64,000 bases of DNA, from positions 32,001-96,000 of the forward strand of contig JAZDKZ010000007.1 of NCBI GenBank assembly GCA_043802485.1, read 5' to 3'. The position numbers and the translations under genes were made by a program. Positions 6,192-58,928 of this stretch are shown one piece after another (within the stretch, counting starts at the first letter, position 1; the number at the start of each line of letters is the position of its first letter). The stretch is from Candidatus Aenigmatarchaeota archaeon (lineage in GTDB: Archaea; Aenigmatarchaeota; Aenigmatarchaeia; Aenigmatarchaeales; Aenigmatarchaeaceae). The notes beneath the pieces are model-generated. The model saw only the letters and a list, made by a program, of their open reading frames with translations. It made no database searches and was not told the origin of the DNA.

Positions 6192-6276
6192 GTCCCCATA
6201 GTTCAATGGATAGAATTGCTCCCTGCGGTTCCTTAGCAGAAAGGAGCAGATTTGGGTTCGAATCCCAATGGGGACA
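6192..6276 (+). tRNA. tRNA-Arg(GCG) with 13-nt intron at 37/38 (6229-6241)
   Basis: Acceptor GTCCCCA/TGGGGAC, anticodon stem GCTCC/GGAGC, GTTCGAATC T-loop; CTGC pairs with intronic GCAG. Confidence 0.92.
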
Positions 6277-21114: not shown

Positions 21115-21200
21115 GCCCTAGTAGCTTAATCTGGTGAAGCGTTCGCCTCGTATAAGTTCGGGAAAGCGAAAGATTGCAGGTTCAAATCCTGCCTAGGGCT
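21115..21200 (+). tRNA. tRNA-Thr(CGT) with 12-nt intron at 37/38 (21153-21164)
   Basis: Acceptor GCCCTAG/CTAGGGC, stem TTCGC/GCGAA, GGTTCAAATC. Confidence 0.92.
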
Positions 21201-23147: not shown

Positions 23148-23235
23148 GCGCCGATAGTCTAGCCTGGTAGGACATAAGCTTCCCAATTATCCAAGGAAAC
23201 AGCTTAGGACCCGGGTTCAAATCCCGGTCGGCGCA
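23148..23235 (+). tRNA. tRNA-Gly(CCC) with 15-nt intron at 37/38 (23186-23200)
   Basis: Acceptor GCGCCGA/TCGGCGC, stem TAAGC/GCTTA, TTCC/GGAA central helix. Confidence 0.92.
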
Positions 23236-37476: not shown

Positions 37477-37579
37477 TGGACCGGAGGGGACTCGAACCCC
37501 TAACCTCTTATGGCCCTGAAGGGTTTCCATTTTGGTTTAGATTGCCAAGGAAGCGATCTTCCAGTTGATCTACCGGCCC
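37477..37579 (-). tRNA. tRNA-Ala(GGC) with two introns: 37/38 (37530-37542) and 42/43 (37508-37524)
   Basis: Removing both gives a 73-nt cloverleaf; central helices TTGG/CCAA and ATGG/CCAT. Confidence 0.88.
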
Positions 37580-37618: not shown

Positions 37619-37728
37619 TGGGCCGGGCAGGACTCGAACCTGCGATATTCACCGTGTAAGGGTGACGTATGCCATTGTTCCAAGGGCTCAACCCTAAGAA
37701 ACAATCATAGCCGCTAGACCACCGGCCC
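37619..37728 (-). tRNA. tRNA-Val(TAC) with 37-nt D-arm intron at 23/24 (37669-37705)
   Basis: 73-nt spliced product; GCTA/TGGC helix, TTGTTTC/GGAACAA intron helix. Confidence 0.88.
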
Positions 37729-55988: not shown

Positions 55989-56618
55989 ATGGGATTGAAG
56001 GAATTCAACTCACTCGTATTGGACGAAAATTACAAGCCTAACATAGAAAACAGTACAACGTACAGATTAGAGGAATTAGATTCTCTGACGTTGGATGAGA
56101 AACACAAACCCGACATAGAAGGCAGTACAACGGATGGTCTGAAAGAAATAGCTCTTTTAGGGTATAATGACAAGTGGATATACGTATACAAACTGGATAA
56201 TTTCATCGATGTTTTCTCTGATATTTTCCAATGCCGTTTCAGCGATTACGATCCAAGACCAGATAGCATGATGCATGAAAAGTACAAAAAAATGGAGCGC
56301 GGCAGCGACTTGCAGTTTAGGATGCTGTTCAAAGAAGGAAAGCACAGGATAAACTGCCTTGAAATGGGCTTGTTGCCCGAATATGTCGAGATAAAAGACG
56401 AAAAGCGTAGAGTGAACATAGCCGGCTGGCCTGTTAAGAGAAAGATGTACAGCGGTTCGCTCAACAAAAGAGAACCAGAAGAAATAGATTTGTTAACTTT
56501 AATCTCGAATTATCTGGGTGCTGTAAACCAGAAAGAAGTTCTAGAGAGGCTAGATAAGCACATGAAAGAAGAGTGGCAAAAGCTTCATGGAAACAAAAAA
56601 CCGATCTACAGGGTATAG
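55989..56618 (+). CDS. hypothetical protein with N-terminal 24-aa tandem repeat
   Basis: 209-aa ORF. Confidence 0.65.
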   Translation: MGLKEFNSLVLDENYKPNIENSTTYRLEELDSLTLDEKHKPDIEGSTTDGLKEIALLGYNDKWIYVYKLDNFIDVFSDIFQCRFSDYDPRPDSMMHEKYKKMERGSDLQFRMLFKEGKHRINCLEMGLLPEYVEIKDEKRRVNIAGWPVKRKMYSGSLNKREPEEIDLLTLISNYLGAVNQKEVLERLDKHMKEEWQKLHGNKKPIYRV

Positions 56619-56649
56619 ACTTTTTAACATACTTGACCAATTATCTATT

Positions 56650-57198
56650 ATGTTTCTTCGTATAGTGCCGGTAAGCATTATACCACAAAGGGTTCTGGAC
56701 ATGGTACAAAGCGAGATTGAAACCGTCCTCAGGATAAAGTGCAGGATAATGCCAAAGCTGGCCATACCAGAGGATTCTTTCAACAGGTGGAGGAAGCAGC
56801 ACAACGCCGGAACTATCCTAACCAAGCTATCTAGCGAGTCAGCAGTAAAGTTCATAGACAAGAGCATACCGACTGTGATGTTGATAGACTCTGACCTTTA
56901 CTATGAAGGGCTGAACTTTGTCTTCAGCCTTGAGAACCCGACCATCAGCTGCTTTATCGTTTCGATAGCAAGGATGAGACCAGAGTTCTACGATGAAAAG
57001 CCTGATATTAACTTGCTGGCCGAACGAGCCACGAAGGAGGTCATCCATGAGATAGGGCATCACCTAGGATTGAGGCACTGCACCAACATGGAATGCGTGA
57101 TGTGCTTCTCGCCTTCGGTGGGCGACATCGACGCAAAGCAAAAGTATTTTTGCGAGAGCTGCAAGATTAGCCTGATGACAATGGGAGTGAGATTGTGA
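56650..57198 (+). CDS. amzA: archaemetzincin zinc metalloprotease
   Basis: LNFVF, KEVIHEIGHHLGLRHC...CVMCFS...FCESC. Confidence 0.9.
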   Translation: MFLRIVPVSIIPQRVLDMVQSEIETVLRIKCRIMPKLAIPEDSFNRWRKQHNAGTILTKLSSESAVKFIDKSIPTVMLIDSDLYYEGLNFVFSLENPTISCFIVSIARMRPEFYDEKPDINLLAERATKEVIHEIGHHLGLRHCTNMECVMCFSPSVGDIDAKQKYFCESCKISLMTMGVRL

Positions 57199-57234: not shown

Positions 57235-57783
57235 ATGCCCAAGAAAACAGTCAAAGCAGAACTGCAGGACAACAGAGCTGTGATATGGAACAGGGACGAT
57301 GCCAACCGTCTATTCAATGAAGGCTGGTATGGCGAACTGTTCGATGACCGCTTGGAGCTTTCTCTTGTCGAAGCAACCTTCCTTCTAGATAAGGATAAGA
57401 TCGATATCAAGAAGGACGGGAAGAAGGTCATGCTCAAGAGCATATACAAGCATGCCCAGAAGATAGACCCTAGATTTGTCATACGCTACACTGTCTACAA
57501 GGACATGAGGGAAAGGGGCCTGCCTGTGAGGACAGGCTTCAAGTTCGGCTGCGATTTTCGAGTATACGAGAGGGGCGTCGCTCCTGTGAAGAAGGGGCCG
57601 AAAGCGCCGCACGAGCACACGAAATGGATAGTGTTCTGCGTGCCAGAGGATTACGCATGCTCCTTCCAGGAGCTGTCAAGAGCTGTTCGGCTTGCCCATA
57701 ACATAAGGTCCAGCATGCTCTGGGCCATAGTCGACAACGAGAATGATGTTACCTATTACAACATCAATTACCTTAGCCCGTGA
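57235..57783 (+). CDS. endA: tRNA-splicing endonuclease, single-unit type, atypical
   Basis: LELSLVEA, VYKDMRERG..VRTGFKFGCDFRVY, VRLAH, AIVD...YY. Confidence 0.92.
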   Translation: MPKKTVKAELQDNRAVIWNRDDANRLFNEGWYGELFDDRLELSLVEATFLLDKDKIDIKKDGKKVMLKSIYKHAQKIDPRFVIRYTVYKDMRERGLPVRTGFKFGCDFRVYERGVAPVKKGPKAPHEHTKWIVFCVPEDYACSFQELSRAVRLAHNIRSSMLWAIVDNENDVTYYNINYLSP

Positions 57784-57785
57784 TC

Positions 57786-58928
57786 ATGATGAAAGTAAAA
57801 GATATAATGTCAACCGACATAGCGTACGTTTCTCCGGAGGACAACGTGTCAAGCGTCATCTCCCTGATAGAGAAGAACTGCTTCAGAGAGATATTGGTCT
57901 TGGAGGACAACAAACTGAAGGGAATCGTCTACTCCAAGGAAATAGCAAACAAGGGTATAAACGACCCGTCGAGGATAAAAGTCAGGACGATAATGGGCCA
58001 CATGCCAGCAACATTGAAAGCAGACCATGAAGCCGACGAGGCAGCAAAACTTATTCTGAGAACAGGCCTCAGGGCATTGCCTGTGCTAGAGAACCAAAAG
58101 GTAGTGGGCGTGGTGTCCATGCACGATATCGTGGATATGGCAGCAAAGGGAAAGGCTTTCAGGCAGACAAAGGCAGAGGCAGTAATGTCAACTGCAGTGA
58201 TAGTCGGCGAAGAGGATGATATGGGGACTGTAAGGCTCCTGATGAGAGAAAAGAACATATCAAGGATACCTGTTGTTGACGGGAAGAAGAAGCTTTCAGG
58301 CGTTGTAACGATATTCGATCTGCTAAAGGCAGTGAAGCCAAAGGAAAGGATGACCTTCTATTCGATGGCAGCAGAAAAGGTGACTGTTATGGGTATTCCT
58401 CTGTCTGTTGTTATGAACAAGCATCCGACAACAGTTGAAAAGAAAAATCCTCTGAACGATGCTGTCAGTCTCATGAGAAAGTATGAAACAGACGGCGTGA
58501 TTGTCGTTGAGGACAATGTTCCAATAGGCGTTGTGACAGAAAAGGACCTTTTGGAATTCTATGTTTCAGGCTTGAAGCAGAAAGGCATGAACTACCAGAT
58601 AAGCGGCCTTGTGGACGAGGATGATTTCGTCGTGAACACGGTGGACAGGATGATAAGAGACAGCTTGCAAAAACTGTCCAAGATGGTGAGGGCAGAGTTC
58701 TTCTTCCTGCACGTCAAGCGATACGACAAGGGTGGCAGGATAAAGTACTCGATAAGAACAAGGCTGAGGGCAGAAAAAGGCTTCTATGTATCAAAGGCGT
58801 ATTCGTGGGACCTAAGATCGGCTGTGGACGAGGCGATGGACAAGCTGGATAAAATAGTGATAAAGAACAAGAAAACCAAGAGAGACAGATTAAAAGAAAT
58901 GTTAAGGTTTAAGAAGTTGCTAAGATAA
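57786..58928 (+). CDS. 4xCBS protein with C-terminal HPF/RaiA-like domain
   Basis: Four CBS repeats, then HVKRYDKGGRIKYSIRTRL...AYSWDLRSAVDEAMDKL. Confidence 0.8.
   Translation: MMKVKDIMSTDIAYVSPEDNVSSVISLIEKNCFREILVLEDNKLKGIVYSKEIANKGINDPSRIKVRTIMGHMPATLKADHEADEAAKLILRTGLRALPVLENQKVVGVVSMHDIVDMAAKGKAFRQTKAEAVMSTAVIVGEEDDMGTVRLLMREKNISRIPVVDGKKKLSGVVTIFDLLKAVKPKERMTFYSMAAEKVTVMGIPLSVVMNKHPTTVEKKNPLNDAVSLMRKYETDGVIVVEDNVPIGVVTEKDLLEFYVSGLKQKGMNYQISGLVDEDDFVVNTVDRMIRDSLQKLSKMVRAEFFFLHVKRYDKGGRIKYSIRTRLRAEKGFYVSKAYSWDLRSAVDEAMDKLDKIVIKNKKTKRDRLKEMLRFKKLLR

Follow-up and report, generated by a model that had tools for sequence, protein, structure and literature searches.

The open reading frame at positions 57235–57783 (+) of the window, as we call the whole 64,000-nucleotide stretch of DNA analysed here, encodes a 182-aa EndA/VSEN homologue (P0001) of an Aenigmatarchaeota-like archaeon. 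It raises the question of how a tRNA-splicing endonuclease could work when one residue of its catalytic triad is missing. All four types of archaeal EndA, and the eukaryotic TSEN as well, have been described as having the Tyr-His-Lys triad in common. The triad Lys, described as conserved throughout the four archaeal types (PMC6379350) and needed in ARMAN-2, has been regarded as universal, from the archaeal enzymes up to TSEN of humans. The chemistry of archaeal EndA is described as RNase-A-like (PMC12397907, PMC6379350). A phylum-wide Lys-less enzyme in genomes with many intron-bearing tRNA genes is a natural experiment on the role of the triad Lys, and a single subunit of 182 aa is easy to express.

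The endA product and its catalytic residues

P0001 matches PF02778 and PF01974 as well as TIGR00324, all above cut-off, and its named relatives in the homologue search are Aenigmatarchaeota. The AlphaFold2 model (pLDDT 87.7, 90-row alignment) was compared with solved structures by Foldseek, and the best fold match was 1a79_A with a TM of 0.84. With both domains and the EndA fold, P0001 belongs to the EndA/VSEN family.

The features described for this gene are all on the + strand. By alignment and codon reading, the triad Tyr is Tyr111 (TAC, 57565–57567) and the triad His is His128 (CAC at 57616; 57616–57621 together with Thr129), so that both residues are kept as the initial annotation had stated. 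The two RNA-contacting residues were likewise found by alignment: Arg152 (57688–57690), the cation-pi sandwich Arg, aligns with R275 of ARMAN-2, and Lys103 (57541–57543), the bulge-phosphate contact, aligns with ARMAN-2 K228 and is invariant in 120 of the 120 best homologues. The acidic L10 assembly loop (Asp167–Thr173, 57733–57753) was recognized by comparing patterns between alpha and beta subunits. It is followed by a C-terminal strand (residues 173–182, 57751–57780), which alignment and a four-copy model mark as the self-pairing interface; Tyr179 in this strand aligns with a Tyr near the C-terminus of M. jannaschii EndA.

At the site of the triad Lys, P0001 carries a Ser. The alignment with 1a79_A contains no gaps between His128 and the C-terminus, and Ser159 (TCC at 57709; Arg158 and Ser159, 57706–57711) falls on Lys156, the first Lys past the conserved Arg in M. 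jannaschii EndA (numbering from PMC2761253). A shift of the alignment by one residue does not regain a Lys because Ser159 is followed by Ser160, and homologues have Asn, His, Ser or Arg at that place. A sequencing error or strain quirk was also considered and rejected, since the best 120 homologues carry Ala (101) or Ser (19) and never Lys. Compared with three relatives of the genus, endA shows a dN of 0.11–0.18 at a saturated dS of 1.8–2.9. The replacement read earlier from the motif HNIRSS thus holds: the triad Lys is truly gone in P0001, and for lack of this Lys we do not class the protein as a canonical catalytic subunit. Otherwise it probably works like an alpha4 EndA.

Distribution of the lysine loss and subunit architecture

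Across the relatives aligned, the loss is lineage-wide and spans the sampled phylum. In 80 relative loci the triad-Lys site is occupied by Ala (74), Ser (3) or Thr (3), and all 40 loci sampled across the families of the phylum are Lys-less (39 by pattern, L069 by reading); these 40 were selected among the top-scoring 150 of 359 rows, which biases the sample towards short alpha subunits. Twenty-six of the 40 belong to genomes in which PF01974 matches once, all of them Lys-less. The trait occurs in three architectures, namely as a single gene, as tandem beta and alpha genes (17 loci) and as a 389-aa fusion, and one Lys-less member is named Nanohaloarchaea (P0127). Elsewhere the triad Lys is the rule, since it was read in 125 of 150 library-wide representatives scored by pattern (Ala, Ser or Thr in 8, a mis-picked Trp in 1, 16 unread). 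The trait is no singular case. A literature search outside most subscription journals found no publication describing the EndA of Aenigmatarchaeota or a catalytic subunit that naturally lacks the Lys, and the loss is apparently unpublished. The enzyme is known and its loop is known; what is newly seen is the lineage-wide loss of one triad residue.

The fused form (L075, G070:C6; P0121; family f9) is a two-unit, alpha'2-like Lys-less EndA, and alpha'2 was noted as missing from DPANN in the accessible part of PMC5829648. One further Lys-less endA of Aenigmatarchaeota type (L181) was met on a contig of 7.4 kb whose record carries the title of a Planctomycetota bin, and this contig is probably mis-binned.

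A second EndA gene in the source genome had been suggested as a point to check. In the assembly, which is 89% complete in 7 contigs, PF01974 and PF02778 find one place at E up to 10, and custom alpha, beta and epsilon2 profiles run over 16530 six-frame segments find only endA below E 2. P0001 does not resemble a beta subunit, as it keeps His128, a residue absent from 17 of 17 beta subunits, nor is it an epsilon2 enzyme, which is a three-unit fusion of about 390 aa. The catalytic residues and L10 are divided between alpha and beta in (alpha-beta)2 enzymes (PMC2761253). The acidic L10 pattern was detected in 59 of 60 unpaired alpha subunits, P0001 included, in none of 17 paired alpha subunits and in 17 of 17 beta subunits. 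Since the L10 loop is kept, P0001 probably works alone as an alpha4 enzyme; with no beta gene found and L10 intact it is not an (alpha-beta)2 enzyme. At the gene level, an alpha4 organization is seen in the 89%-complete assembly: one gene, coding for about 180 aa, combines the features of catalysis and of L10 in a single chain, and no partner gene was found. A four-copy model of P0001 scored 0.44 against 0.02 for the best control, its confident contacts being those of the C-terminal-strand dimer and not of L10 residues 167–171. Among solved pairs 20 of 30 attained the mark applied, and among single chains 1 of 23 did. The runs of the model agree in at least 45% of contacts and have a pLDDT of at least 79. 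As a like complex has already been solved, the score may be memory of 1a79.

The neighbourhood of endA is conserved. An archaemetzincin gene (56587–57198, +) ends 36 bases upstream, and a gene whose product has four CBS domains and matches PF02482 (S30AE) at its C-terminus lies downstream (57780–58928, +); the latter stands beside endA in 23 of 30 relative loci, the source locus included. In two-gene relatives the beta gene is placed between archaemetzincin and alpha, and this slot is empty here. Such tandem loci (L017–L032, L090, L091) occur in most of the other families that make up the order, and two genomes of this family have them as well; they show a clean split with the His and loop in one subunit and L10 in the other. 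All 17 beta subunits have lost the His and at least 6 loop residues together; in the tree they branch outside the alpha clade, which may be due to long-branch attraction. In six other relatives (L006–L009, L012, L015) the slot before endA holds unrelated genes of 185–254 codons that differ by relative, and it is an insertion-prone site. Presumably some of these genes are HD-domain-like or nucleotidyltransferase-like, as judged by motif. A hidden beta gene in these gaps was sought and rejected, the 8 open reading frames matching no EndA profile (best E 0.018 in the set). In the window, a 209-aa open reading frame at 55989–56618 overlaps the start of the archaemetzincin gene and has no Pfam match.

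EndAs of the epsilon2 type, about 400 aa long, were observed in several Aenigmatarchaeota families. They occur alone or beside a Lys-less short enzyme, at L092, L094, L093 and L186 (genomes G171, G088, G116 and G261) and at L074, L076, L077, L081, L083 and L084. The canonical Lys is present in 9 of 9 aligned epsilon2 enzymes of the phylum. Published accounts, in their accessible parts, place epsilon2 only in Micrarchaeum-related lineages.

Such enzymes bear on the possibility that P0001 is a non-catalytic or weak structural or accessory subunit, the true catalyst, for example a Lys-keeping epsilon2, being encoded in an unassembled part of the genome. The incompleteness of the assembly leaves room for this, in the four genomes just named a Lys-less short EndA coexists with a canonical epsilon2, and two others (G071, G102) show epsilon2 alone. 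However, Tyr, His, Arg152 and Lys103 are invariant, unlike in true beta subunits with their lost His, and in two-gene relatives the Lys-less copy alone carries the His. Ten of 11 other matched genomes of this family have a single match. Further, five genomes in 1–5 contigs (G139 in one; G131, G080, G152 and G053 in 2–5) contain a single EndA match each at E up to 10, and all five are Lys-less; in the one-contig G139, 6 of 7 tRNA genes read (12 Rfam hits) are over-length and of intron type. We consider an accessory role improbable, and the gene-level evidence makes it very probable that P0001 self-assembles and cuts.

The L3 loop and Lys123

The insertion between the triad Tyr and His (residues 115–127, 57577–57615) is basic and aligns with that of N. 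equitans and ARMAN-2. The spacing from Tyr to His is 17 in P0001, as against 10 for the M. jannaschii, 16 for the N. equitans and 15 for the ARMAN-2 enzyme, and the 7 extra residues relative to M. jannaschii EndA agree with the number estimated at first. The initial annotation had taken the loop for a new analogue of the CSL (L1) or ASL (L2). This assignment was rejected because CSL and ASL sit in the N-terminal region, where P0001 has no insertion, and hence no Lys-bearing one, relative to 1a79. By its position and alignment the insertion is the published L3 loop of Nanoarchaea and ARMAN-2 and is not new; it was named, and reported in DPANN alpha4 enzymes, by Kaneta et al. 2018 (PMC5829648).

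Pooled proteins and loci matching fixed patterns with a Gly seven residues before the His were collected as L3 cores, a set from which epsilon2 loops and pattern-unmatched rows were left out. Of the 306 distinct Gly-x-basic cores, the triad Lys is absent from 287, which have Ala (225), Thr (35) or Ser (27) in its place. The position five residues before the His, occupied in P0001 by Lys123 (57601–57603), carries Lys in all 287 Lys-less cores, with both AAA and AAG in use, whereas it is Arg in 19 of 19 Lys-keeping cores. Neighbouring basic positions of the 287 Lys-less cores vary (His-8: Lys 207, Arg 68, other 12; His-9: Lys 271, other 16). The triad Lys itself is never Arg in 450 sequences, and in never turning Arg the Lys at His-5 appears to behave like the triad Lys.

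These patterns make Lys123 a candidate substitute for the triad Lys. In the mechanism that we propose, P0001 would be the working tRNA-splicing endonuclease of the genome, encoded as a single-gene subunit that would assemble with itself in an alpha4-like manner through the C-terminal strand and the acidic L10 loop. Arg152, Lys103 and the basic L3 loop would bind bulge-helix-bulge (BHB) and relaxed motifs, Tyr111 and His128 would cut the RNA in the manner of RNase A, and Lys123 would reach into the space freed by the change of Lys to Ala, Ser or Thr and supply the positive charge that the triad Lys of canonical enzymes brings to the scissile phosphate. That Lys123 supplies the charge of the lost Lys is favoured by its being Lys in every one of the 287 cores and never Arg while His-8 and His-9 vary; we give this step somewhat less than an even chance. 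It is weakened by the tree, in which the Lys-less enzymes with L3 fall into a single clade (39 of 159 tips, support 0.997) and the Lys-keeping Gly-x-Arg ones into two groups, so that the Lys/Arg difference at His-5 is one evolutionary contrast and not 287 events, and may be due to shared ancestry. ARMAN-2 also counts against Lys123, because cleavage persists when L3 is mutated (K241A, K244A) but is abolished in K282A and likewise in K161A of the ASL (PMC3488258).

A further point against Lys123 comes from a second Lys-less clade without the L3 insertion, which comprises 20 rows with Thr at the triad site; its records bear the names Diapherotrites or Micrarchaeota, and another 7 rows without Lys, mis-picked by the pattern, are excluded. 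It probably represents a second, independent loss. Examples of short-loop EndAs with this Thr are P0164, P0315, P0295, P0395, P0256 and P0223. In the main short-loop Lys-less clade 8 of 8 tips have Lys or Arg at His-5, as do many Lys-keeping short loops; P0256 and P0223 have no basic residue there, which again speaks against a stand-in at this position. A metagenome scan with P0164 yielded 4 loci, of which the three readable at the triad site all keep the Lys and none is close to P0164.

These short-loop enzymes are also consistent with P0001 being active alone without any replacement of the triad Lys. The backbone at His128 and Thr129, together with Lys103, Arg152 and Arg158, would hold the transition state, and Lys123 would be an RNA-binding residue for relaxed introns, like Arg97 of N. 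equitans. In ARMAN-2 the residue after the His also bonds the scissile phosphate (PMC12397907), mutation of the triad His slows an archaeal EndA just 28-fold (cited in PMC3149027), and Lys-keeping L3 enzymes, too, have a basic residue at His-5. Moreover, other positions are fixed or nearly fixed along with the loss: Thr129 is Thr in 287 of 287 Lys-less cores and Ala or Ser in 19 of 19 Lys-keeping cores, Ile157 is found in 283 of 287, and Arg158 in 287 of 287. On the other hand, the loss of all cleavage in ARMAN-2 K282A is hard to reconcile with a dispensable Lys, a pure binding residue should tolerate Arg as His-8 does, and the short-loop Lys-less proteins may not be the sole EndA of their genomes. 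We regard activity without a replacement as plausible, though rather doubtful.

Arg158, which adjoins the lost Lys, might instead have assumed its charge role, as the same position is Lys in 17 of 19 Lys-keeping cores. However, many canonical enzymes, 1a79 among them, combine an Arg here with the triad Lys, ARMAN-2 K282A is dead despite its own Arg at this position, and the equivalent site varies between Arg, Lys, Asn and His in the short-loop Lys-less group. A role of Arg158 as the substitute is therefore very unlikely.

Retaining Lys123 as the preferred candidate, we tentatively suggest, as a scenario almost as likely to be right as wrong, that in Aenigmatarchaeota and some Nanohaloarchaea the catalytic Lys has moved from the core to L3, where one loop would serve both catalysis and relaxed-intron recognition, and that the single-gene, two-gene and fused forms arose afterwards. 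If true, this would define a new catalytic subtype of the EndA family in which the Lys thought universal is relocated, and would assign the first function to an L3 residue. The Lys-less enzyme also allows the L3 loop to be tested precisely; what this loop does was guessed from its position and was unconfirmed by the mutagenesis of ARMAN-2.

tRNA introns and comparison with known EndA systems

The likely substrates of P0001 were examined with ARAGORN, which reported 22 intron-bearing among 44 tRNA genes in the source genome. Twenty-one were kept, one tRNA with a 180-nt intron (C6:30642) being discarded for its overlap with the rtcB match; RtcB is present in the genome. Intron positions were taken from heuristic BHB models. 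By these, 7 of the 21 genes have introns outside 37/38 (23/24, 29/30, three at 30/31, 42/43 and 43/44; one 38/39 call and two ties are not counted), and two introns lack an outer helix.

In the window, short introns at 37/38 occur in tRNA-Arg(GCG) (13 nt, 6229–6241, +; inner helix 1 bp; a likely substrate), tRNA-Thr(CGT) (12 nt, 21153–21164, +; inner helix 1 bp) and tRNA-Gly(CCC) (15 nt, 23186–23200, +; inner helix 2 bp). On the – strand, tRNA-Ala(GGC) carries two introns (37508–37542), one at 37/38 (37530–37542) and one at 42/43 without an outer helix (37508–37524), and tRNA-Val(TAC) has a 37-nt D-arm intron at 23/24 (37669–37705) with a strict BHB. The model of the latter was top in one run and tied on score with two others in a second, and it alone among these has long helices on its flanks (3 and 7 bp). 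The heuristic models hence bear out the relaxed and non-canonical introns mentioned in the initial annotation. Elsewhere in the genome, a tRNA with anticodon TGC at C6:219794–220322 has a 456-nt intron of strict BHB geometry, and an ARAGORN call with a poor 5' end at C4:44142–44220 (–) suggests a hidden D-arm intron or a split gene.

Among known systems, alpha4 enzymes with L3 and disrupted tRNA genes have already been reported by bioinformatics in DPANN and Hadesarchaea (PMC5829648). The accessible text of that paper makes no mention of a loss of the triad Lys, though an alignment in its figures could show the substitution, and Aenigmarchaeota occur in it once, in the definition of DPANN. The best sequence match of P0001 is the alpha4 EndA of M. 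jannaschii (PDB 1A79, E 6.5e-34), with which it shares the size class, Tyr, His, sandwich Arg, acidic L10 and C-terminal strand, and from which it differs by Ser159 in place of Lys156 and the 7-residue L3 insertion. Further, the specificity of 1A79 is listed as narrow (PMC6379350), whereas the host of P0001 has relaxed and non-canonical introns.

The (alpha-beta)2 enzyme of N. equitans (NEQ205 and NEQ261, PDB 3IEY) has an L3 (residues 90–98) nearly the same as that of P0001. It keeps Lys133, however, carries Arg97 at the position of Lys123 and needs its beta subunit, whereas P0001 keeps its own L10. The epsilon2 VSEN of ARMAN-2 (PDB 4FZ2, 9W2K) is a three-unit fusion with an essential K282, in contrast to the single 182-aa unit without triad Lys. 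Its second essential Lys, K161, lies in the N-terminal ASL that P0001 does not have, and its L3 lysines are dispensable. The ARMAN-2 enzyme nevertheless resembles P0001 in bearing L3 at the same place and in the residues equivalent to R275 and K228, and its broad range of substrates is probably shared by P0001.
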